Below are positions 24,396 through 42,134 of a stretch of 64,000 bases of DNA, one piece after another. How positions within the stretch are numbered: position 1 is the stretch's first letter; each line of letters begins with the position of its first letter. The notes under the pieces are model-generated. The model saw nothing but the letters and a program-made list of their open reading frames with translations. It was not told where the DNA came from and ran no database searches. The translations under genes were made by a program, and so were the position numbers. This DNA is from Thermoplasmata archaeon. Its GTDB lineage: Archaea; Thermoplasmatota; Thermoplasmata; RBG-16-68-12; JAFNFQ01. The DNA lies in contig JBGPQV010000001.1 in NCBI GenBank assembly GCA_041489255.1, forward strand, positions 110,606-174,605, read 5' to 3'.

Positions 24396-24496
24396 GCCGT
24401 CGTAGCTCAGTCTGGTAGAGCCCCCGGCTGTTAGTCCGTCTCGTCGGAGATGGAGCAGGCACCGGGTGGTCTGCGGTTCGAATCCGCACGACGGCG
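24396..24496 (+). tRNA. tRNA-Asn(GTT) with 27-nt intron at canonical 37/38 position
   Basis: Acceptor GCCGTCG/CGACGGC; D-arm GCTC-AGTCTGGTA-GAGC; anticodon stem CCCGG/CCGGG; loop CTGTTA|intron|A; T-arm TGCGG-TTCGAAT-CCGCA; discriminator G. Intron ~24434-24460. Confidence 0.75.
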
Positions 24497-31757: not shown

Positions 31758-34280
31758 TCAGGTAGATCCGCGCCTGACCAACCTCTTGAACGCGGCCTCG
31801 TAGCGCAGGAAGTTATCCGACGTCACGAAGCCATTCACGATATCGGCCGGCATGTTCGCTATGAATTTGTCCACGACGGTGAGGGCGTCTCTCGCGCTCT
31901 CGACCTGCTCCTCGTAGTCCTTCAGCTTCCTCTCTAATTCCTTCATCCGGTCGTCGAACGGGATGACCTCTTCCGGGTCCTTGCCAGTTGTCCTCGGTTT
32001 CCCCTTCGCCAGCTCCTCCTCGCTGGCCCTAATCCCAGCCTGGATCTGCGTTATCTCCTTGTGAGACTTCTCCAATAGGGCTTCCCTGTTCCTGAGATCC
32101 TTCTCCAACTCAGCGAGTCTCCGGCTCTCCTCCTCAAAATCGCGGACCTGCTTTGTGGTTGCCGCCATCTCTGCGTGGCGGGAGTCGAGCTCCTTTTCCC
32201 GGTTCACAAGCCGACCCTCCTTTTGCAGGAACTCCGATTCTCTGGAGGCCAGCTGCCTGGCTTTCTCCTCCAGTTCGTTCGTCTTGGCGTCCATCTCCGT
32301 CCTCAGCGCCTCTATGGAAGCCACGGCCTCGCCCATGCGCTTTTCGCGTTCCGCCATCGCGTCCTCTGCGGCCTTCACTCTCTCGTTCAGCGACGCCTCC
32401 TTCCTCTCCATCTCCCTCTTCACGGCTTCCATCGATCGGTCCTCACCCGCAGCTGACCGCCTGAGATCCTCGGACTTCTTTGCCTCCTCCGCCTGTGTCC
32501 GCTGCAGGTCCAGCACGCGGGCTTCCACGAGCCGTGCCTCCGCGAGCCGCTTCTCCAATTCCTCGCCCAGCCTCTTCGCCATCTCCCTCTCGGCATCGAC
32601 CGCCTCGCGCTCGCGCCTGATTGATGCGCGCACCGCGTCCACTTGGGCCATGTTCATCTTGAACGTCTCTTTCGCCTGGTCCGCCTCGCGTTCCTTGACG
32701 GCCAGATCCTGCTCCTTCTTCCTCATTCTCTCTTCCTTCGCGCCAATCTCCGCCTCAATGCCTTTGACCGCCGCGGCCTTCTGCTCGGTCTCGCGTAAGC
32801 GCGCAGCGAGGCTGTTTTCCTGCTGCCGCGTCGAATCCTGCCTGACTTTCAAATCGGCGTCCATCGCCTCGATCGGGGCTGTCCTCTTGTCCAGCTCGCG
32901 GTCCCTGGCGGTGAGCTCCTGTTCCATGCGCGTGATGCTCTCCTCCCTCGCCGCGAACTTCGACTCCATCGCAGCGGTCATTGCCGACCTGTCACCGACT
33001 TCCTTCTCTCTCTTGACCAGCTCTTGTTCCTTCTGCTTCAGGACATTTTCTTTCGCGGCGAGTTTTGCCTGGGTGACCTCGATTGGCGCGGCTTTTCGTT
33101 CTATCTCCTTCTCCCTCGCGAGCAGCTCCTCTTCTTTCCTCTTCGCCGTGGCTTCATTCTCCAGGAGCCCTTTCAATGTCCTGTCGATGGTCGCGACCTT
33201 CTCGCCCACTTCTCGCTCGCGGACCCTCTCCTCGCTCAAAGTCCTCTCTCTGTCCGCGCGGATCTGGTCCATCTGGAGGCGCAACGACTCCTGCACGGAC
33301 ATCAGAGATGCGGCATGCTGGCCCACATCCGCCAGCTTCTTCGAGGCCTCCTCTATCGCCGCGATGTTGCCCTCCCTCTGCTGTATGTCAGCGATCTCGG
33401 CCCTTATCCTCTCCTCCTGCTCCTTCATTTGGGCCTCGAGGGACCTGAGGGCTTCCTCCCTCCTCTCAATCTCCGCCTTGCTTGCCGCCATCTCCGCTTC
33501 CTTTCCGGCCATCTGCGCAATCTGCTCTTCGAGTTTCTTCCTCGAATCATCGAGCGCGAATCGCTCCTTGCCGAGATCCAACAGCTTCTCTTCGAAATCG
33601 CGCACGCGAGCGTCCATGTCCTCCATGAGAACTGCAATCTCGCGCGTGTTGACCAATACCTCTCGGGCGATCTCGTATTCTGACTCCAAGCTCGACGGGC
33701 GCTTTTCGGGCATAGCGGGTATCTCCTCCGACTTGGGGGCTTCTTCCACCGCCTCTTCGGCTGGTTCTTCAACAACTGGTATTTGGATTCGGGTCACCGG
33801 CTGCGGGGCTTCGGGCGGCGGTGGTTCCTCCGGCCCGAGGCGATCCGGCGGTGGGGTGGGTTCTTCAATCACCGCAGGTTCGTCCATGATTGGCTGCACG
33901 ATTTCAGCGGACTCTGCCGCCATCATCGGCGGGGGCGGCGTCGGCATGTATTGCACTGATTCCGCTGGCGGTACCGGAATCTGCGGTTCGACCGGTTTCC
34001 TCCTTGAGGGGAATGGACTCAGCCAAACGTATTCCACCCCATCCCCGCCCTGCGCCTCGACGAATCGGATGAGTCTACCCTTCATTTCGTCGACGTCGCC
34101 GGAGTCGTCGATGTGGTAGGCCTTGCACAGATTCTTGAGAGGGCGCTCCTGCGTGTAGGACATGATCGCCCTGGCGGGGAGCAGCTGCACATGCAAGGTC
34201 CGCTCGACGACAATCGCCGAGGCGATGAGCACAGCCGCCAGGATGATGAATGCATTCAGTCCCAACACGTCAACTGACAA
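31758..34280 (-). CDS. membrane-anchored 840-aa coiled-coil protein with Rho_N/SAP-like motif
   Basis: N-terminal TM FIILAAVLIASAIVV. Motif LKNLCKAYHIDDSGDVDEMKGRLIRFV. Pro-rich linker. ~550 aa of E/K/R/A coiled coil. Globular C-terminus. Confidence 0.7.
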   Translation of the reverse strand: MSVDVLGLNAFIILAAVLIASAIVVERTLHVQLLPARAIMSYTQERPLKNLCKAYHIDDSGDVDEMKGRLIRFVEAQGGDGVEYVWLSPFPSRRKPVEPQIPVPPAESVQYMPTPPPPMMAAESAEIVQPIMDEPAVIEEPTPPPDRLGPEEPPPPEAPQPVTRIQIPVVEEPAEEAVEEAPKSEEIPAMPEKRPSSLESEYEIAREVLVNTREIAVLMEDMDARVRDFEEKLLDLGKERFALDDSRKKLEEQIAQMAGKEAEMAASKAEIERREEALRSLEAQMKEQEERIRAEIADIQQREGNIAAIEEASKKLADVGQHAASLMSVQESLRLQMDQIRADRERTLSEERVREREVGEKVATIDRTLKGLLENEATAKRKEEELLAREKEIERKAAPIEVTQAKLAAKENVLKQKEQELVKREKEVGDRSAMTAAMESKFAAREESITRMEQELTARDRELDKRTAPIEAMDADLKVRQDSTRQQENSLAARLRETEQKAAAVKGIEAEIGAKEERMRKKEQDLAVKEREADQAKETFKMNMAQVDAVRASIRREREAVDAEREMAKRLGEELEKRLAEARLVEARVLDLQRTQAEEAKKSEDLRRSAAGEDRSMEAVKREMERKEASLNERVKAAEDAMAEREKRMGEAVASIEALRTEMDAKTNELEEKARQLASRESEFLQKEGRLVNREKELDSRHAEMAATTKQVRDFEEESRRLAELEKDLRNREALLEKSHKEITQIQAGIRASEEELAKGKPRTTGKDPEEVIPFDDRMKELERKLKDYEEQVESARDALTVVDKFIANMPADIVNGFVTSDNFLRYEAAFKRLVRRGST

Positions 34281-34826: not shown

Positions 34827-36107
34827 ATGGAGAGAGACGTAGGCATAGAGGTCTACCTGACCACCACCCGGGGGTTTGGCGGCAGGATAAAAGTCAATCC
34901 TGAGGATTTCGTCGTCAGCGAGATTCCAATTCTACCGCCGCGCGAGGAGGGCGGGAGATACACGGCAGCTTGGATCAGGACCAGGAACTGGGAGACCAAC
35001 CGCCTGGTCAGGATGATGTCGAGAGAACTGCGGATCTCCCGCAAGCGGATCAGTTTCGCGGGGACGAAAGACAAGCGGGCCCTCACCTCTCAGCTTTTCC
35101 AGTTCGACGCTCCAATCGATCTCGTTGGCGGCTTGAGAATCAAGGACGTCGAGTTGCTGGATTTCTACCAGACATCGAAGAAGGTCGAGATTGGCGACCT
35201 CCGGGGCAACCGCTTCGACATCATCATCCGGGATATCCGACTGTCGGGAGAGGAGACGGCTAAGCTCGCGACCGCCACCGCCGCGGAGCTTGCGGCGGCG
35301 GGAGGCTTCCCCAACTTCTTCGGCGTGCAGAGGTTCGGATCTATCAGGCCGATAACGCACATCGTCGGGAGGCATATCGTCAGAGGGGGATTCAAGGCGG
35401 CGGTGGACGCCTATGTCGCAAACCCGATCGAGGGCGAGGACGAGCAGGCATTCGAAGTCAGGACCGCGCTCGAGCAGAGCGGGGATTATGGCGAGGCCCT
35501 GAAGACGTATCCCGATGTGATGAGCTTCGAGAAGGCCATCCTGAACCATCTCGTCAAGCATCCGGATGATCATATAGGTGCGCTGGAGCAGCTCCCCTTC
35601 AACCTGCTGATGATGTTCGTCCACGGCTACCAGTCCTACCTGTTCAATCGCATTCTCAGCGAGAGGATCAAACGCAGAATGCCGCTGAGCATGCCGACTG
35701 TGGGCGACGTGGTCATGGCGGTGGGCAAAGACGGTCTGCCTGATGATCGACATTTCGTCCCAGTGACGGGGGATAATATTGAGAAGGTAGGTAGGCAGAC
35801 ATCAAGCGGCAAAGCGTTCGTCACAGGAGTATTATTCGGGTCGGAATCCACCCTCGCCGCCGGTGAAATGGGGGAGATCGAGAAGGGAGTCGTCGAATCA
35901 GAGGGACTGAGACCGCACGACTTCACGCTGCCGGCAATGCCACGGCTCTCTTCCAAGGGCACGAGGCGACCCCTCGCGATGCCCCTGCCGAGGATGGACG
36001 TGAAACCTTCAGACGGATCGGTCGAAACGAAGTTCGAGCTCTCGAAGGGCTGCTACGCGACGATTCTCCTGAGGGAGTTCATGAAGGTCGACCCACTCAA
36101 GGGCTAG
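34827..36107 (+). CDS. truD: tRNA pseudouridine synthase TruD/Pus7 family
   Basis: 426 aa. N-terminal GIEVYLTTTRGFGGRIKVNPEDFVVSEI and catalytic GTKDKRA. Confidence 0.85.
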   Translation: MERDVGIEVYLTTTRGFGGRIKVNPEDFVVSEIPILPPREEGGRYTAAWIRTRNWETNRLVRMMSRELRISRKRISFAGTKDKRALTSQLFQFDAPIDLVGGLRIKDVELLDFYQTSKKVEIGDLRGNRFDIIIRDIRLSGEETAKLATATAAELAAAGGFPNFFGVQRFGSIRPITHIVGRHIVRGGFKAAVDAYVANPIEGEDEQAFEVRTALEQSGDYGEALKTYPDVMSFEKAILNHLVKHPDDHIGALEQLPFNLLMMFVHGYQSYLFNRILSERIKRRMPLSMPTVGDVVMAVGKDGLPDDRHFVPVTGDNIEKVGRQTSSGKAFVTGVLFGSESTLAAGEMGEIEKGVVESEGLRPHDFTLPAMPRLSSKGTRRPLAMPLPRMDVKPSDGSVETKFELSKGCYATILLREFMKVDPLKG

Positions 36108-37183
36108 ACGAACCCCCATGCGTGCTCGCAGTTGCCGACGACCTCGCCAAGGTCGGAAAGTGACCATTTGCGCGGACCCTCCTCGTACTCGAACCGCGTG
36201 ACGTTCACGGGGTATTCGTTGTAATACAGTATCGTCGTGATCGGTCCGAGGAACGGCTGAACTATCTTCCAGTAGGCCCTCGCGTAGGCCGCCATTTCCA
36301 TCTTGAGCTTCTGGCCCCCTTTCTCGCCCTGAAGGAGGAAGATCGGCAGGTCGTCCTCGTAGCGCTTGCTCATCTTGATTCCCTTGAGCTTGTGGAGCTT
36401 GCCGTCGCCGCCGTCGATGAACTGGAACCCCTTCGAAAGCATCCTCTCGCCCCAGTCGAACCCGCTGGCGTGACTCTCGGTCCTCCTGAGCATTGGCGGG
36501 CCGATGTGCGGCATGAAGTAGTCGATGTAGGAGTCGTTTTCAGATTGGAAGACTCCCCAGTACCATGGAGACGTCGGTGAGTTGATTCGGACCTTTTGGA
36601 AGTAAGCGGTCCCGTCAACTTCCTCCTTCGTCCCCGCCACCGACACGGTCCCCGTGACCCTGTTGCCGCGGATCTTGTGCATCTTGTACCCGAGGTGCCC
36701 GAGGTAATCCTTCCCAGTCGGGATGATCGAGTCCAGATGATTGGTCAACTTGTCCAGCGTGAGGTCAACGCGCGCGTCAGGGCGATCCACGAGGATGCGG
36801 TACGGCCTCGCCGTCGCATCGAGCGCGTAGGTGGAATCTGATTTGACCGAGAGAGTCCCGCCATCGTCCGTCCATCTCGTCTCCAAGTTACCGCCATCGA
36901 CGAACAGGGGGTCGTGCATTACCTCGCCGTCGTAGTACCATCCCGCCGCCATGCCCCTGGTATCAATGCTGTTACCTTTCCTCAGGAAGGCGCCGTCGTT
37001 CTTCCATGGGATGTCGTTGATCACGAGCTTCTTGCAGTTGCGGGTGCCCCAGAGAATGACCATCTGTTTGGTCCTATCCGGTCTGGCGGGATTCTTGAAG
37101 AAGAAAATGAACCACCACCACCACCAGGTCCTGCTCTTGAGCTCGTGAGAGCGGTCGATGTCGAGGACTTCCTGCCAGCTCAT
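36104..37183 (-). CDS. hypothetical Trp-rich protein (possible AttH/CrtC-like lipocalin fold)
   Basis: 359 aa. N-terminal TWWWWWFIFFF resembles the EWWYF motif of the AttH/CrtC hydratase-like family. 4-nt convergent overlap with truD. Confidence 0.5.
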   Translation of the reverse strand: MSWQEVLDIDRSHELKSRTWWWWWFIFFFKNPARPDRTKQMVILWGTRNCKKLVINDIPWKNDGAFLRKGNSIDTRGMAAGWYYDGEVMHDPLFVDGGNLETRWTDDGGTLSVKSDSTYALDATARPYRILVDRPDARVDLTLDKLTNHLDSIIPTGKDYLGHLGYKMHKIRGNRVTGTVSVAGTKEEVDGTAYFQKVRINSPTSPWYWGVFQSENDSYIDYFMPHIGPPMLRRTESHASGFDWGERMLSKGFQFIDGGDGKLHKLKGIKMSKRYEDDLPIFLLQGEKGGQKLKMEMAAYARAYWKIVQPFLGPITTILYYNEYPVNVTRFEYEEGPRKWSLSDLGEVVGNCEHAWGFV

Positions 37184-37285: not shown

Positions 37286-37768
37286 TTGAAAGTCGACGAA
37301 GTGATGACAAAGAGCCCGTTCACGCTCAGACCCGACCAGACGCTGAGGGAGGCCGCGATCAAGCTGGCAGACTTGAACGTGTCAGGCGCCCCCGTGGTCA
37401 GCGAGACCGGGGGGATTCTGGGGGTGCTCAGCGAGGTCGACATCCTGGAGGCGCTGAAGACCCATTACAAGGCGCTGAAGATGCTCATGCCGCCGGAGAT
37501 CACCTTCGGCATCAGCTTCGTCGAGGTCGTGAAGGAGAGAGACGCGATCAGGGCTTTCCAGGAGCTGAAGGACGTCAAGGTCAAGGACGTCATGAAGAAA
37601 CCGATCACCGTCAACCCTGGAGACAAGGTCGAGAACGCGATCAAACTGATGGTGGAGCACAAGATCAGCCGCGTGCCAGTGGTCGACCACGAGAAGGTCG
37701 TCGGGATAGTCACCCGCGGCGATGTCCTCAAGGGGTTCTTCCGGCAGGTCGGGCAGCTCGTCCTCTAG
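37286..37768 (+). CDS. CBS-pair domain protein
   Basis: Two CBS motifs. 160 aa from TTG at 37286, or 154 aa from ATG at 37304. Confidence 0.75.
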   Translation: MKVDEVMTKSPFTLRPDQTLREAAIKLADLNVSGAPVVSETGGILGVLSEVDILEALKTHYKALKMLMPPEITFGISFVEVVKERDAIRAFQELKDVKVKDVMKKPITVNPGDKVENAIKLMVEHKISRVPVVDHEKVVGIVTRGDVLKGFFRQVGQLVL

Positions 37769-39354
37769 TCCTTCCAGAGGTTCTTGAACTTGGACCACAC
37801 GCCAGTCGGCGCCCTCCACCTGTAGGTGTAGCCGCAGTCCGAGCACCTGCTCCATCCGTCGTCGGTGAACTGAAGGCGGTTCGAACCGCACGACGCGCAT
37901 ACGCCCTCCATCGGTTTCGCTATGCCCCTCTTTGCCCTTTCTTCGACCAGTTTGGGCTCGAGCCTCCTTGAGGCCTCGGCGGCGTTCTTGGCGAAAATTG
38001 TGCCGTTCACGTAGTCGCCTTCGGTAAGGATGTCCTTGGCCTGCTGTAGGAGCGTCCGCGCTTCCCCGACGTCAATCCCGAAGCTCTCCGCCTCGTCGAT
38101 TACTGGCTCAATCTGCGTCACGATCGCCTGAGCCTTCTCGACCTGCCGCCTGCGGAGTTCCATCGCCCGGAGTATCTGGTTTTGCTGGCTCTCCATGGCA
38201 GCCCTCTCGGCCCTCTTTACCAGCTCGCTCGCGAGCAGGTATTCCTTCGACGCGAAGGCCGTCTTCGCCTTTGAGACGAGGCGCTCCGCCTCGGAGATAT
38301 CCGCGCCGACATGCTTCGCCTCTTCTATTATCAATACCGTGCCTGGAATTGCCTCTTCTATGTTCCTCAGCCGCTCTTGCTTCGCGGTCTCGGCCATCTC
38401 GATCGCCCTGGCCGAGTGCTCGAGGCTCCTCTTGTACTCGCTCCGCTTGAGTGCGTCCCTGGCCTCGCTCAGCATCTCCTCCGCCTTGCGCACGTCAGCA
38501 CCCAGGTTTGAGATGTCCCGCATGACCTCCTGTGTCCTATGTATCTCGTCCCTGGCCCTCTGTACCTCCGCTGAGAACAAGCTCCTGCTAACCGCCTCGA
38601 GTTCCTTCAGCTGCCCGTTCATCCCGCCAGTATCCCCCTCTCGGAAGAGCCTCTTCGCCGTGCGCAGGATATCCGCGGCCTTCTCCACATCCCGCCCCGC
38701 CTTGCCGCATTCCTCCACGAGGCGCTGCGCGGAAAGAATCGCGTAGGCTAGCGTCGAGTTCTCCATCTCCTTCCTGCACTTCTCTGCAGACTCCCTCGCC
38801 TCCACCGCCGCACTCAGCGCGCCCTCGAAGTTCTTCTCTTCGAAACGCATCCTCGCCTGGTCGAGCAGATCCTCGCAGTGATCGAAGTCGACTTCCAAAC
38901 TGAGGGCTTGCTTCAACGCCGGGTCGACGGTAGAGTCCTCCAGAGGAGGCAGCCTGACAGCCTCGGCTGTCTTGACAATCTCACCCTTGACCTCCTCAAG
39001 CTCGTCCTTGATCGTGTCCAACGATTTCTCGGATTTCAGCGACTCGGCGATCGCAGCTGCGGACGGATGAGAGATCAAGGTGCTGATGAGTTCCTTCCTA
39101 TGTTCATCTTTCGAGACGGAGACGCCATGTCTTGCCGCGATGTCCTTCAGTTCCTTCAGGCTCTTGCTGTCCAGCAAGTGTGGCAGGCTACCCTCCCATG
39201 CTTTGACGACGTCGCCTATGTTCTCGAGGGAGGTGAGCTTGGTGACGAACTCGTCACGCTTTTTCATGCCTTCGGTCTGGATCCCGGCCTGGGCCGCGAT
39301 CTCTTTCAGCTCGCGCAGGCTCATCTCTTTCAAACGGAGGTCGACGCGGGGCAT
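37765..39354 (-). CDS. 529-aa protein: two Rho_N/SAP-like N-terminal motifs, five ~65-aa alpha-helical repeats, C-terminal zinc ribbon
   Basis: Rho_N/SAP-like motifs SLRELKEIAAQAGIQTEGMKKRDEFVTKL and LKELKDIAARHGVSVSKDEHRKELISTLI. Repeats carry (E/D)GDY...A..A.EA signatures. C-terminal CASCGS...CSDCGY zinc ribbon. Confidence 0.7.
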   Translation of the reverse strand: MPRVDLRLKEMSLRELKEIAAQAGIQTEGMKKRDEFVTKLTSLENIGDVVKAWEGSLPHLLDSKSLKELKDIAARHGVSVSKDEHRKELISTLISHPSAAAIAESLKSEKSLDTIKDELEEVKGEIVKTAEAVRLPPLEDSTVDPALKQALSLEVDFDHCEDLLDQARMRFEEKNFEGALSAAVEARESAEKCRKEMENSTLAYAILSAQRLVEECGKAGRDVEKAADILRTAKRLFREGDTGGMNGQLKELEAVSRSLFSAEVQRARDEIHRTQEVMRDISNLGADVRKAEEMLSEARDALKRSEYKRSLEHSARAIEMAETAKQERLRNIEEAIPGTVLIIEEAKHVGADISEAERLVSKAKTAFASKEYLLASELVKRAERAAMESQQNQILRAMELRRRQVEKAQAIVTQIEPVIDEAESFGIDVGEARTLLQQAKDILTEGDYVNGTIFAKNAAEASRRLEPKLVEERAKRGIAKPMEGVCASCGSNRLQFTDDGWSRCSDCGYTYRWRAPTGVWSKFKNLWKD

Positions 39355-39466
39355 GATTGCACTCCCAATAGACGCCGGGCATTCTCATCCGGTGCAATAG
39401 GATAAAAGTTTCGGGAAGGTTCGCACGGAAGGATATTTGGCGGGCAATCTCTGAATCAATTGCAAC

Positions 39467-39814
39467 CTAGAGAGTCCTCTCCATGAACCCTCCGATCTCC
39501 TTCTGGATGACCGATACGAGGTCCTTCGAAAACTCCTCTCTCATCTTTGGCGGCACCAATTCGAGCCCGAGCTTGACCCCCGCTTTCGCCAGCTTCACGA
39601 GCGCGTAGCCCTCCTTAATCTTGGCCTCCATGAGCTCCTCGACGGCGGCCTTCATCTCGTTCTTCAGCTCTGGGTTCTCGTCAATCTTCTTCCTGATATA
39701 TTTCTTGACTTCGTCCCTGACCATGTCCTTGAGGGCCTCCGCGACGAGGTTCTCCGCGCGGAGCATGTTGGTCGATTCGGCAAGCATATCCTCTATGGGC
39801 GTGCGCTCGGACAT
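39467..39814 (-). CDS. small alpha-helical hypothetical protein
   Basis: 115 aa, charged helical composition, no family recognised. Confidence 0.45.
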   Translation of the reverse strand: MSERTPIEDMLAESTNMLRAENLVAEALKDMVRDEVKKYIRKKIDENPELKNEMKAAVEELMEAKIKEGYALVKLAKAGVKLGLELVPPKMREEFSKDLVSVIQKEIGGFMERTL

Positions 39815-40466: not shown

Positions 40467-40589
40467 TAGGCGGTAGCGGTTAATGAGTTTTTAGGATTCC
40501 CGAGATGGTTGGCGTGGGTACCGCCACGGGAATAGGATTGATACTAAGCCACCGCAACCCTTTAACGATTGAGCACCATGGTGCCCGCC

Positions 40590-40664
40590 GGACCCGTGGC
40601 CTAGACAGGATATGGCACCGGCTTTCTAAGCCGGCGATCCCGGGTTCGAATCCCGGCGGGTCCG
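40590..40664 (+). tRNA. tRNA-Arg(TCT), copy 1, full length
   Basis: Acceptor GGACCCG/CGGGTCC; anticodon stem CCGGC/GCCGG; loop TTTCTAA; T-arm CCGGG-TTCGAAT-CCCGG; discriminator G. Confidence 0.8.
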
Positions 40665-40708
40665 TCTCAGACCGTATCGACCGCCCTGTTGGCTCTCGGA
40701 TAATCAGA

Positions 40709-41146
40709 CTATTGAGAACGATTATGCTTCGTTGGTCTCGGCGGAGTCTTGCCGCGCAGGGTGCAGATGCTGAACTCGGCGTCCAAGGCAACTCTCCCAC
40801 TCAGCTTCTTGACCTCTTCGAGGGCGGCGAGGGCACGTTGTTCGTCGAACGGATATACATCATTGGCTGCCCACACCCTCACATATGGATTGTCGTGGTC
40901 TAGGAGCGAGTTCAAGGCTTGCTTGCCCTCATCTCCAGCTCTCTTCAGTCCGCGTGCCGCCGCAATGACGCGCCTAGCGTATCGATTCACCGTCAGTGGA
41001 TGTGAGTGAGCGTCACACGCGGCTCCGTACTTGATTGCGGCATCGACATAACGAGCCTTCAGTCGGGCGACGGCCCGAGATTCGTCTTGAATGCTCATGG
41101 CCGCCACTCGCCCCCTGAGATCATCTCGAGTACCTGCCAACCTCAA
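40709..41146 (-). CDS. small HEAT-like repeat protein, paralog A
   Basis: 145 aa. LL.H.NP.VR..AA HEAT-type motif. ~35% identical to paralog B. Confidence 0.5.
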   Translation of the reverse strand: MRLAGTRDDLRGRVAAMSIQDESRAVARLKARYVDAAIKYGAACDAHSHPLTVNRYARRVIAAARGLKRAGDEGKQALNSLLDHDNPYVRVWAANDVYPFDEQRALAALEEVKKLSGRVALDAEFSICTLRGKTPPRPTKHNRSQ

Positions 41147-41184
41147 CCCGAGTACCCATCATAAGATTTCCCGATGGTTTACGC

Positions 41185-41249
41185 CCTAGACAGGATATGG
41201 CACCGGCTTTCTAAGCCGGCGATCCCGGGTTCGAATCCCGGCGGGTCCG
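41185..41249 (+). pseudogene. 5'-truncated copy of tRNA-Arg(TCT) (positions ~12-73)
   Basis: 100% identical to copies 1 and 3 from CCTAGACAGG through the 3' end plus TCTCAG. Lacks the 5' acceptor strand. Confidence 0.7.
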
Positions 41250-41424
41250 TCTCAGTCCATATAAACCGGCGTCATTCGAGCGGGATTGAGCGAACACGAC
41301 TGATGCGCTTCCAGCCTCTGACCCTGAAAAATCCCCTTCCCCACTTCCAAGGGAGCAGCCCTCGATACTTCGCCTTCAGGCGAGAAGGATTCGACGTGGA
41401 CTGGGGTCTCTTTGATCCCCACTC

Positions 41425-41805
41425 TCAGGGGTGGAGCCGCCCCGCCCGCCACTCCCGCAAGACCATCTTTGCATTGAAGCCAACAATGCTTTTCTCCCTC
41501 GTCAAGGCCTCAATCATTTTCGTTGCTTCCGCTTCGTGATACTTCAGGTATATGCTCGCTGCGACCAAACGTACCCAAGGATTCGAATGCTCTAGTAGCG
41601 CATGAATCGCGTGCCGTCCGGCTTCTCCTTTCTTCTCCAAGCGCTTCCTGAGACTATCATAACGCTTGTACTGCTTGTTCGTCGTCTTGTAGTCGGCCGC
41701 ATCGGCCGCAGCTCCATGCTTGGTGACTGCGTCCACGAACTCTTCGACCAAACTCGAGATGGATTCCGGATTGCGCAGAATGCGACTCTTCACCCGCGGC
41801 GGCAT
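41425..41805 (-). CDS. small HEAT-like repeat protein, paralog B
   Basis: 126 aa. Homologous to 40709..41146 (FVDAV.KHGAA.DA...LLEHSNPWVRLVAAS). Confidence 0.5.
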   Translation of the reverse strand: MPPRVKSRILRNPESISSLVEEFVDAVTKHGAAADAADYKTTNKQYKRYDSLRKRLEKKGEAGRHAIHALLEHSNPWVRLVAASIYLKYHEAEATKMIEALTREKSIVGFNAKMVLREWRAGRLHP

Positions 41806-41900
41806 TGGCGTTGGCGGGATATTAAGGTTGTATGGAACCGGGGGGAAAAGAAACTCCCGCCACCGCCACGGTTCGACGAGTGAATACCATAACGCCCCCC

Positions 41901-41975
41901 GGACCCGTGGCCTAGACAGGATATGGCACCGGCTTTCTAAGCCGGCGATCCCGGGTTCGAATCCCGGCGGGTCCG
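41901..41975 (+). tRNA. tRNA-Arg(TCT), copy 3, full length, identical to copy 1
   Basis: Same 75-nt sequence as 40590..40664. Confidence 0.8.
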
Positions 41976-42134
41976 TCTATTCCCGAAGAAGGATAAAACT
42001 AATCAACCGTTTAGGCCAAAGTGGTCGTTCGACCTCTTTTCCTTTGGTTCCTGTCCCCCCAAGCTCCTGCCTGGAAACGGGCGGGGACACCTTTCCTCTT
42101 TTATACATTGGATTTATTGCCGCAATCGATTCAT

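Follow-up and report, generated by a model that had tools for sequence, protein, structure and literature searches.

Very little is known, to our knowledge, about chromosome positioning and segregation, and about their coupling to FtsZ-based division, in euryarchaea outside the haloarchaea, and we know of no chromosome-tethering or division-site machinery of this kind in Thermoplasmata. Eukaryotic helix-extension-helix (HeH) proteins include the HeH/LEM proteins of the inner nuclear membrane, and the spectrin repeat, a building block of helical rods, spans about 106 aa and three helices. DNA binding is combined with a weak amphipathic helix in Noc (PMC4331003), and the helices that target MinD and Noc to the membrane are described as conserved in character and as set behind a variable spacer (PMC6803595, PMC4331003). 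The locus described here lies in a stretch of 64,000 nucleotides (hereafter the window) and encodes a protein of 529 aa, which belongs to a real, conserved and unnamed protein family of uncultured Thermoplasmata archaea.

The gene reads as the preliminary description had it, as a minus-strand ORF with an ATG start, and its start methionine is common to the aligned orthologues. Also correct were the archaeal origin, a Thermoplasmata-type genome from a metagenome matching the locus at 99% identity, and the domain order, with two SAP/Rho_N-type motifs followed by five helical repeats and a zinc ribbon (Table 1). Two further features are an acidic linker, which is flexible, and a C-terminal tail of conserved basic and amphipathic character. 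A homology search retrieved 51 homologues (38 to 98% identity) and a deep search 1258 representatives at E<=1e-3 (167 at E<=1e-30), the family being confined to Thermoplasmata metagenome genomes. Widening the alignment for a last homology search brought hardly any gain, and none of the matches was a named protein of a cultured organism. All homologues were annotated as hypothetical or mislabelled as TPR repeat protein, the TPR label being carried by some from JGI.

Table 1. Features of the locus, in window positions and in residues of the 529-aa protein.
Feature	Position	Residues	Strand	Basis and remarks
Gene of the 529-aa protein	37765..39354		minus	ORF, ATG start, 529 aa plus stop
SAP/Rho_N-type helix-loop-helix motif 1	39223..39339	6-44	minus	Rho_N score, PHROG, AF2 model
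SAP/Rho_N-type motif 2	39064..39180	59-97	minus	Reciprocal HMMs, conservation, AF2 model
Acidic linker, length-variable	38893..39063	98-154	minus	AF2, pI, alignments
Rod of five helical repeats	37915..38892	155-480	minus	Unit HMMs, AF2 helices
C4 zinc ribbon	37804..37914	481-517	minus	C486-x2-C489-x14-C504-x2-C507, then conserved W513
Basic amphipathic C-terminal tail, candidate membrane-targeting or partner-binding helix	37768..37803	518-529	minus	GVWSKFKNLWKD; AF2, charge, moment
BRE/TATA-like element	39401..39413		minus	CGAAACTTTTATC; read from sequence, about 48 nt upstream of the ATG
GGGAG Shine-Dalgarno-like motif	39362-39366			Ahead of the ATG; read from sequence
Upstream partner gene p115	39467..39814		minus	115 aa; modelled as three long helices; outside known families
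Convergent CBS-pair gene	37286..37768		plus	160 aa; Pfam CBS E 2e-33; 3' end overlaps the stop codon of the 529-aa gene by 4 nt
Gene noted earlier as a second SAP-like gene	31758..34280			840 aa; N-terminal transmembrane helix, Pro-rich linker, coiled coil of about 600 aa

No Pfam or NCBIfam model covers the family, and targeted literature searches gave no description of it, in agreement with the earlier statement that no described factor has this architecture. Pfam and NCBIfam showed no enzymatic or catalytic domain, PADLOC no defence family, and the protein no transmembrane segment (highest 19-aa hydropathy mean of 0.86). Sequence and profile searches and Foldseek detected no relative in the PDB (nothing at E<=0.001 with Foldseek). 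An NCBIfam SAXB match (28.5 bits, cut-off 95) was taken as compositional, and a defence or phage origin was rejected, PADLOC giving no match and PHROG matches being confined to the small SAP module and to one weak match with a helical tail protein.

The protein is acidic overall (pI 5.6), with E, A, L, R and K as its abundant residues. This composition, together with weak SAXB, CHASE and similar matches typical of biased helical sequence, could be expected of an ORF that arose by chance or of an artefact of low-complexity coiled coil. The conservation data already refute this explanation and leave it a virtually nil probability: full-length orthologues at 20 to 99% identity keep the Cys, GDYVNGT and RMRxEE motifs unchanged, AF2 models the protein with confidence (mean pLDDT 85.5), and synteny and a promoter-like element are conserved. 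Full-length conservation down to about 20% identity implies purifying selection on the gene.

The assignment of the N-terminal motifs to the Rho_N/SAP type holds at the family level only, since orthologues pass the thresholds and the window protein falls narrowly below them. The whole protein scored 24.2 bits against Pfam Rho_N (E 3.3e-5, in two stretches; cut-off 24.9) and 16 bits against Pfam SAP (16 to 17.7 bits over all scans; cut-off 23.9), and motifs 1 and 2 scanned singly scored 24.7 and 13.5 bits against Rho_N. Failure at profile thresholds, named in the preliminary description as a result that would count against the motifs, was found for the window protein, by 0.2 to 0.7 bits for Rho_N (24.2 to 24.7 against 24.9), and not for its orthologues. 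Family profile matches (n = 27, E<=0.01) comprised Rho_N in 12 of 27 (best 2.5e-8), SAP in 7 (best 4.6e-7) and SAP_RNF34_RFFL in 5; PF07498 was precomputed in six orthologues, and several carry PF07498 or PF02037. HMMs of motifs 1 and 2 detected each other (i-E 4.6e-6 and 6.8e-8), with no other carrier among all window ORFs of at least 80 aa, including those of 840 and 1,512 aa. In the AF2 model each motif forms two helices (13-22 and 33-41; 66-75 and 86-95) around an extended 10-residue loop, within about 35 residues and at pLDDT 79 to 85. Reciprocal HMMs, family-level profiles and the modelled helix-loop-helix units (13-41 and 66-95) therefore bear out the two consecutive motifs that had been recognized by their pattern.

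Residues 7-43 matched phrog_2724 (E 1.2e-7) and phrog_3281, an endonuclease VII (E 1.2e-6), so that the residues matching Rho_N also match C-terminal modules of phage proteins, including the endonuclease VII family. Motif 1 is missing in some lineages, for example the P0038/P0045 clade, and family members differ in its net charge, which lies between -5 and +5 and is acidic (-2 to -5) in one clade. Motif 2 is kept in all members, including those at 20 to 28% identity, with L61 and A73 invariant and a net charge of +1 to +5 in most of them. By analogy with such motifs elsewhere, the SAP-type motifs may bind nucleic acid, most likely double-stranded DNA; protein contacts are also possible through motifs of this type. 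The nucleic-acid-binding scaffold proposed earlier is in this respect a reasonable reading of the protein.

Likeness to Rho is limited to the N-terminal helix-loop-helix unit, which aligns with positions 2-29 of 43 in Pfam Rho_N. Rho carries an RNA-binding OB domain and a hexameric RecA-type ATPase, whereas the protein has neither, and architecture and phyletic range also differ. Neither Pfam nor NCBIfam matched an OB or cold-shock-like domain at E<=10, the region behind the motifs being all helical in the AF2 model, and neither matched a RecA-type ATPase, the C-terminal part consisting of helical repeats and zinc ribbon. A relationship to Rho was rejected for want of its RNA-binding and ATPase domains, and the protein is not a Rho-like transcription terminator. 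What the preliminary description had concluded from Rho does not stand, as the Rho_N model matches only a small unit common to SAP domains; that archaea lack Rho is no argument for novelty, since Rho_N here marks merely the general SAP/helix-extension-helix fold.

In the spirit of the same description, the protein could be an RNA- or RNA polymerase-associated transcription factor using Rho_N-like motifs and a zinc ribbon, an explanation that now appears very unlikely. Rho_N is indeed the best Pfam match, the ribbon bears a weak likeness to the RPB9, TFIIB and A2L ribbons (E 0.01 to 0.2), and both the window and L006 carry Rpo11 and TruD genes at a distance of about 3 kb. However, the ribbon matches are far under cut-offs and spread over many unrelated families, the protein is without the OB domain and the ATPase of Rho, and the N-terminal helical sub-domain of Rho is not known to contact RNA. 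The analysis gave no link between the protein and RNA polymerase. Rpo11 and TruD neighbour the gene in the window's own clade only, Cdc6 and deoxyhypusine synthase (DS) occupying their place in other lineages.

Behind the motifs, the AF2 model shows the linker as one long helix followed by a low-confidence segment (pLDDT 50 to 66 over residues 111-140, below 50 at residues 127-132). The linker has a pI of 4.5, with many indels and Pro-rich inserts in relatives. The rod units begin at residues 155, 220, 285, 350 and 426 (periods 65, 65, 65 and 76), each with a helix of about 16 residues followed by one of 28 to 53 residues and the consensus G-x-D-V-x2-A-x2-L-L-x2-A-x2-A-x5-Y. Unit HMMs cross-matched in register, unit 3 recovering the other four at i-E 4.6e-9 to 5.7e-3, which substantiates the five repeats of about 65 aa reported earlier; they matched no other window ORF, the 840-aa and 1,512-aa ORFs included. 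Locally, the repeats resemble three-helix bundles with a TPR-like helix junction. The same repeat, defined here and without a Pfam model, builds giant cytoplasmic proteins in Thermoplasmatota (1,500 to 7,686 aa, up to 35 copies), often with a C-terminal Cys-rich finger, and without transmembrane segment or SAP motif. Since the repeat also builds these SAP-less proteins with other C-terminal zinc fingers, the rod says nothing specific about DNA.

These giants are consistent with a pure protein-protein scaffold or cytoskeleton-like rod, in which the repeat would be a Thermoplasmatota-specific unit for making long cytoplasmic rods, SAP-like motifs, ribbon and tail would be protein-interaction modules and no nucleic acid would be bound. 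The acidic motif 1 of one clade, the helical and probably oligomeric conserved partner p115 and the TPR-like junction point the same way, TPRs being protein-binding repeats. Such a scaffold is nevertheless rather unlikely, as the N-terminal motifs specifically match SAP, Rho_N and phage DNA-enzyme modules and the mostly basic motif 2 is retained in every member. The junction between short and long helix (x-G-D-Y-x2-A-x3-a-x2-A) resembles the TPR A/B junction, and the repeat-unit profile matched Hop TPR2A (E 7.6e-5) and consensus TPR designs, the design matches being individually insignificant and their summed score inflated by repetition. The period is 34 in TPR against 65 to 76 aa here, with a second helix of 28 to 53 residues, and the window protein has no Pfam TPR match at E<=10; it is thus not a canonical TPR protein.

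At the C-terminal end, the four Cys of the predicted ribbon (C486, C489, C504 and C507) never vary, even in aligned members at 20% identity, and the AF2 model places three short strands (494-496, 501-504 and 510-512) around the two CxxC knuckles, as in beta-hairpin zinc ribbons, so the C4 ribbon called from the sequence is upheld. All zinc-ribbon Pfam families were sub-threshold, the best being Zn_ribbon_IS1595 (17.2 bits against 25.4), and matches were scattered over many unrelated ribbon families; a small ribosomal protein chain was weakly matched by Foldseek (E 0.24 to 1). The tail forms a helix (519-528) at low pLDDT, with a net charge of +2 and a hydrophobic moment of 0.54 in the window protein. 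Among 121 family proteins, the last 12 residues had a mean net charge of +2.5 and a hydrophobic pair in 101, as in KKRKGFLKW, KKGLFRW and KGLFRRRKR, and the spacer between ribbon and tail varied from 3 to 60 aa. The physico-chemistry of the tail is thus conserved across these proteins, and its sequence is not. The tail has only about 11 residues and a moderate moment (0.4 to 0.7), and some members stop right behind the ribbon; it agrees with amphipathic membrane-targeting helices of the MinD, FtsA and Noc type in sequence character only.

The gene has a conserved neighbourhood, with p115, the CBS-pair gene and DS as members, and probably its own promoter, suggested by the BRE/TATA-like element, whose core AA..TTAT is invariant in the spacer between p115 and the gene in six lineages. 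From its TATA-like part (39402-39407), a transcription start is predicted about 25 nt downstream. Apart from the L004/L005/L010 clade and L024, every lineage examined has p115 immediately ahead of the gene and in the same direction (50 to 93% identity); the two genes are neighbours in about 15 lineages, and many of the 26 p115 homologues lie on contigs that also carry a homologue of the 529-aa protein. Its product was modelled at low confidence (pLDDT 70.3, pTM 0.34; helices 6-46, 48-86 and 89-114), with no Pfam, PADLOC or PHROG match and no fold match for the model. A marginal match to the P. abyssi XerA recombinase profile (E 8e-4) was rejected and judged to be chance, as it covers a short segment without catalytic His/Arg context. 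The CBS gene keeps its convergent position in most lineages; the distant L024 clade (22% identity) is one of them, and DS is kept there too. Owing to this orientation, the CBS gene is not co-transcribed with the gene.

In most lineages Orc1/Cdc6 is found upstream and an RHH-FtsZ gene pair 1.5 to 7 kb downstream. This synteny is lost in the window's own clade, where the trio of p115, the 529-aa gene and CBS is intact and has moved away from Cdc6, and the RHH-FtsZ pair is absent from the window. Cdc6 and FtsZ genes are housekeeping genes, and their synteny may reflect inherited gene order, not a functional link. The proximity to ftsZ, the tail resembling a membrane-targeting sequence and the precedent of Noc (PMC4331003) would suit an EzrA-type division regulator, a membrane-associated helical-bundle rod modulating FtsZ assembly, with DNA binding conferring a nucleoid-occlusion-like role. 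Such a regulator is improbable: the structural match (TM-score 0.13, E 1.3) is no better than those of dozens of other helical bundles without any relation to it, sequence searches gave no likeness to EzrA, Noc or SlmA, the genes between the 529-aa gene and ftsZ vary by lineage, and the FtsZ link is missing in the window itself.

The gene at 31758..34280, described earlier as a second SAP-like gene, exists, and its product is a membrane-anchored coiled-coil protein. Its SAP-like motif is conserved in the L006 orthologue and lacks profile support, with no Pfam SAP or Rho_N match at E<=10, no match to the motif HMMs of the 529-aa family, and a single match (SAP_new25, E 0.2) when 50 aa were scanned alone.

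We tentatively favour, as possible rather than probable, a soluble, elongated, cytoplasmic and Thermoplasmata-specific scaffold or tether that would link the chromosome with the periphery of the cell or with a partner complex. The SAP-type motifs at the N-terminal end would hold nucleic acid, the rod would serve as a spacer of very roughly 10 to 20 nm, and zinc ribbon and tail would attach the far end to the cytoplasmic membrane, like the amphipathic helices of MinD, FtsA and Noc, or alternatively dock it on a protein partner such as p115. A DNA-type end, a spacer and a membrane or partner end would together provide such a coupling. This tether reading is supported by the architecture with its rod-like helical fold, by the purifying selection that full-length conservation implies, by the occurrence of the SAP-type module in phage DNA-metabolism proteins, by the universal and mostly basic motif 2 in an otherwise acidic protein, by the conserved tail character without transmembrane segment, catalytic or defence family, and by the conserved neighbourhood and promoter-like element. 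Against it, the motifs of the window protein are slightly under Pfam thresholds and motif 1 is acidic in one clade, each functional step is an analogy and SAP-type motifs can serve protein contacts, the tail is short, of moderate moment and missing in some members, the Cdc6/FtsZ synteny is possibly inherited order, CBS is not co-transcribed, and the repeat also occurs in SAP-less giants.

More doubtful is a specific form of the tether, in which the protein and p115 would be an origin-proximal chromosome-to-membrane tether, functionally analogous to Noc/RacA and HeH/LEM proteins, with SAP/HeH motifs holding DNA, the rod bridging the gap, and zinc ribbon and amphipathic tail gripping the membrane. 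Being conserved lineage-wide, combining a DNA-type motif, a spacer and an anchor-like tail, and usually lying beside Orc1/Cdc6, the protein is a tangible candidate for such a role that can be put to the test. If this specific form is true, the protein would have a part in positioning or segregating chromosomes or in controlling the division site; if it is a generic scaffold only, it is an ordinary conserved hypothetical protein. Two misleading labels of the family, Rho-like and TPR, are corrected here.

Among known systems, helical-bundle rods (EzrA, Staphylococcus EbhA, streptococcal BibA and spectrin-like rods) have no sequence relation to the protein, and matches to them were no stronger than to designed helical bundles. 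Its period of 65 aa with two helices per unit differs from three-helix repeats of about 106 aa, and it is without the N-terminal transmembrane anchor of EzrA. With SAP/HeH proteins (PF02037 SAP, PF07498 Rho_N, PF23632 SAP_RNF34_RFFL) it shares the N-terminal tandem motif of about 35 residues and a long spacer. Unlike HeH/LEM proteins, it lacks both a transmembrane segment and an MSC/LEM partner domain, and its repeats and zinc ribbon have no counterpart there; the apparent homology to the eukaryotic proteins covers the small motif. Both join a putative DNA-binding end with a putative membrane-associated end. Compared with Noc, MinD and FtsA, it lacks ParB and ATPase domains and any likeness in sequence, and its membrane binding is putative, but, like them, it ends in a short predicted helix that lies behind a variable spacer, has a hydrophobic side bordered by Lys/Arg, and is conserved weakly in sequence but well in character (PMC4331003, PMC6803595).

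As judged from sequence, the 529-aa protein represents a real, conserved and unannotated family of the Thermoplasmata. A word-indexed search returned 51 homologues (38 to 98% identity), all from metagenomes or Thermoplasmata metagenome genomes and named 'hypothetical protein' or, from JGI, 'TPR repeat protein'; an exhaustive profile search gave 1258 cluster representatives at E ≤ 1e-3, 167 of them at E ≤ 1e-30. Named source organisms were Thermoplasmata, Thermoplasmatota or 'Euryarchaeota archaeon' genomes, and the window locus was 99% identical to a 'Methanobacteriota archaeon bin_16' contig. In relatives at 20-28% identity the C-terminus was still basic and hydrophobic, and the repeats, all four cysteines and at least the second N-terminal motif persisted. 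Invariant landmarks were DxxxRMRxEE (residues 165-173, repeat 1) and GDYVNGT (446-452, repeat 5). Neither the overall architecture nor the 65-aa repeat was described in the family libraries and literature searched.

The anatomy first read from the sequence (two N-terminal motifs, five repeats, a zinc ribbon) was correct and not due to chance, as displayed by profiles, cross-matching HMMs and invariant cysteines. The best Pfam match was Rho_N, over two stretches (24.2 bits, E 3.3e-5; curated cut-off 24.9), and Pfam SAP reached 16 bits (cut-off 23.9); scored singly with Rho_N, motif 1 (residues 1-45) obtained 24.7 bits and motif 2 13.5 bits. The proposed Rho_N/SAP match thus fell just under thresholds in this protein but held in orthologues: among 27 aligned family members, Rho_N matched 12 (best E 2.5e-8), SAP seven (E 4.6e-7) and SAP_RNF34_RFFL five (E 6.2e-8), a solid sequence-based assignment at family level. 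HMMs built from the family alignment of each motif matched each other reciprocally (i-E 4.6e-6 and 6.8e-8) and nothing further in the six-frame set of window ORFs 80 aa or longer. The small SAP/Rho_N motif class would be the only one to which the protein belongs, its own sequence lying narrowly under threshold. Rho itself was ruled out because the OB domain and ATPase are missing (Pfam), and the Rho-based reasoning of the preliminary description fails. Its suggestion of an RNA- or RNA-polymerase-associated factor has nothing behind it but the name of the Pfam model.

Coordinates of the features (window nucleotides unless stated otherwise)
Feature	Position	Strand	Details
529-aa protein ORF	37765..39354	-	ATG start
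BRE/TATA-like element	39401-39413		CGAAACTTTTATC; spacer between p115 and 529-aa genes; core invariant in six lineages
840-aa protein	31758..34280	-	N-terminal transmembrane helix (hydropathy 2.58), Pro-rich linker, ~600-aa coiled coil
359-aa ORF	36104-37183	-	Trp-rich N-terminus (WWWWWFIFFF)
tRNA	24396-24496	+	101-nt Rfam match, 56 bits
tRNA-Arg(TCT) unit, 120 nt	40548-40667	+	
tRNA-Arg(TCT) unit, 120 nt	41133-41252	+	degenerate, 67% identity, tRNA score 29.8 bits
tRNA-Arg(TCT) unit, 120 nt	41859-41978	+	90% identity
HEAT-like ORF	40709..41146	-	between tRNA copies
DUF2019 ORF	41425..41805	-	between tRNA copies
Repeats 1 to 5	residues 155, 220, 285, 350, 426		start residues, repeat analysis
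Long helix	residues 99-130		AlphaFold2; followed by low-confidence acidic segment
Five repeat units	residues 157-475		AlphaFold2; each ~16-residue helix, then 28-53-residue helix
Three short strands	residues 494-512		AlphaFold2; surround cysteines
C-terminal helix	residues 519-528		AlphaFold2; low confidence
131-aa protein	L004, 7506-7901		in place of p115
RHH-ftsZ pair	L001, 13580-15209		
RHH-ftsZ pair	L003, 12728-14205		
RHH-ftsZ pair	L007, 17778-19098		
RHH-ftsZ pair	L008, 13271-14698		

The AlphaFold2 model, computed from the family alignment (mean pLDDT 85.5, pTM 0.51), bore out the two-motif architecture, with predicted helix-loop-helix units at residues 13-41 and 66-95. HMMs of single repeat units matched the remaining units in register (for unit 3 against the other four, i-E 4.6e-9 to 5.7e-3) and no other window ORF. 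The repeat-unit profile locally resembled the junction between TPR helices A and B (Hop TPR2A, E 7.6e-5; consensus TPR designs also matched), but a canonical TPR protein was ruled out by the 65-76 aa period and the silence of Pfam TPR models; no Pfam model covered the repeat in this protein or its giant relatives. EzrA and spectrin-repeat identities were likewise rejected. The whole protein has a pI of 5.6 and no transmembrane segment (top 19-aa hydropathy mean 0.86).

Outside the window, the ~65-aa repeat also forms giant cytoplasmic Thermoplasmatota proteins (P0055, P0061, P0067, P0089-P0094 and P0091); these are 1,500-7,686 aa long, contain as many as 35 copies and lack transmembrane segments. 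Many end in a Cys-rich finger, which looks RING-like in proteins of ~1,500 aa and like a zinc ribbon in those of ~7,300 aa. That these giant paralogues employ the repeat without any SAP motif favours a rival reading of the 529-aa protein as a pure protein scaffold.

The zinc ribbon cysteines (C486, C489, C504, C507) were invariant in the family alignment. The tail beyond them had gone unremarked; its final 12 residues, GVWSKFKNLWKD, make up an amphipathic helix (net charge +2, hydrophobic moment 0.54). A set of 121 family proteins, each 400-700 aa long and carrying a C-terminal zinc ribbon, averaged a net charge of +2.5 over the final 12 residues; 101 had a hydrophobic pair there. Tail sequences drifted among members (GLWERFRSLLRE, KKGLLGKLFKKE, KGLFRRRKR, KKRKGFLKW, KKGLFRW), and the spacer after the ribbon measured 3 to 60 residues. 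MinD and Noc likewise have amphipathic helices for membrane targeting that conserve their character over a variable sequence and spacer (PMC6803595, PMC4331003). By this analogy the tail may bind membrane; it may just as well be a short peptide that binds a partner.

Gene order was stable over 24 loci: DHH phosphoesterase, DUF835 and divergent Orc1/Cdc6 upstream of p115 (the 115-aa protein) and the 529-aa protein, then, downstream, the convergent CBS pair gene, deoxyhypusine synthase and, further on, a ribbon-helix-helix (RHH) protein and FtsZ. Orc1/Cdc6 lay upstream in every lineage whose sequence reached far enough, apart from distant L024 and the clade that the window forms with L009 and L006. 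In that clade the trio of p115, the 529-aa protein and CBS was relocated yet intact, an argument that the conserved unit is this trio rather than the origin region. L024, in which the 529-aa protein's relative has 22% identity, retained the CBS and deoxyhypusine synthase genes and lacked p115. The BRE/TATA-like element in the spacer suggests that the 529-aa gene is probably transcribed from a promoter of its own. Another rival reading, a division regulator like EzrA or Noc, takes its basis from weak structural similarity and this loose ftsZ synteny.

p115, encoded at 39467-39814 on the minus strand, had 26 homologues, many on contigs shared with homologues of the 529-aa protein, and matched no known family (Pfam, PADLOC, PHROG); its model showed three long helices at low confidence. 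Its family profile marginally matched a segment of the catalytic domain of XerA, a tyrosine recombinase from Pyrococcus abyssi (4a8e; E 8e-4, 64 residues), probably by chance, since the conserved His residues were unmatched. In the L004/L005/L010 clade, the place of p115 is taken by a 131-aa protein whose C-terminal part matches DnaJ (J-domain) at 27.7 bits (cut-off 27.8), and that of the CBS gene by an unannotated 288-aa gene. In these Thermoplasmata the gene for the ~105-aa RHH protein (64-82% identity between lineages) always came immediately before ftsZ, suggesting a conserved unit.

The second SAP-like gene of the preliminary description exists, encoding an 840-aa protein, but Pfam SAP, Rho_N and the family motif HMMs were silent on it; the sole match to its SAP-like stretch, LKNLCKAYHIDDSGDVDEMKGRLIRFV, was SAP_new25 (E 0.2). 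This stretch was conserved in the L006 orthologue (741 aa, same relative position). The coiled coil gave weak SMC/Rad50/JetC-like matches, and the protein may have a structural role as a coiled coil anchored in the membrane. The 359-aa ORF, without match in the Pfam scan, has an unannotated 359-aa counterpart in L006, adjoining the CBS gene in the same position. The three tRNA-Arg(TCT) units, on the side of the p115-target pair occupied by Orc1/Cdc6 in related lineages, look like the product of tandem duplication at a tRNA gene, or like scars left by integration there. The Rfam match at 24396, unreported by ARAGORN, is probably a tRNA with an intron.

For the 529-aa protein, domain layout, conservation and conserved partner genes are established, along with a predicted rod-like helical nature; catalytic, defence and transmembrane modules were absent (Pfam, NCBIfam, PADLOC, hydropathy). 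The SAP-type motifs would bind nucleic acid, since phage proteins, an endonuclease VII family among them, have C-terminal modules that match these residues too, and motif 2 is basic in most members. The repeats would serve as a spacer, and the zinc ribbon and tail would anchor the opposite end to membrane or a partner. An elongated tether or scaffold coupling DNA to the cell periphery or a partner complex is the best-supported reading, tentatively held; its specific DNA-to-membrane version is rather unlikely. The architecture is of interest for this tether-like layout, from which we infer function, and its proposed working most resembles that of SAP/HeH-motif scaffolds and peripheral membrane tethers such as Noc.
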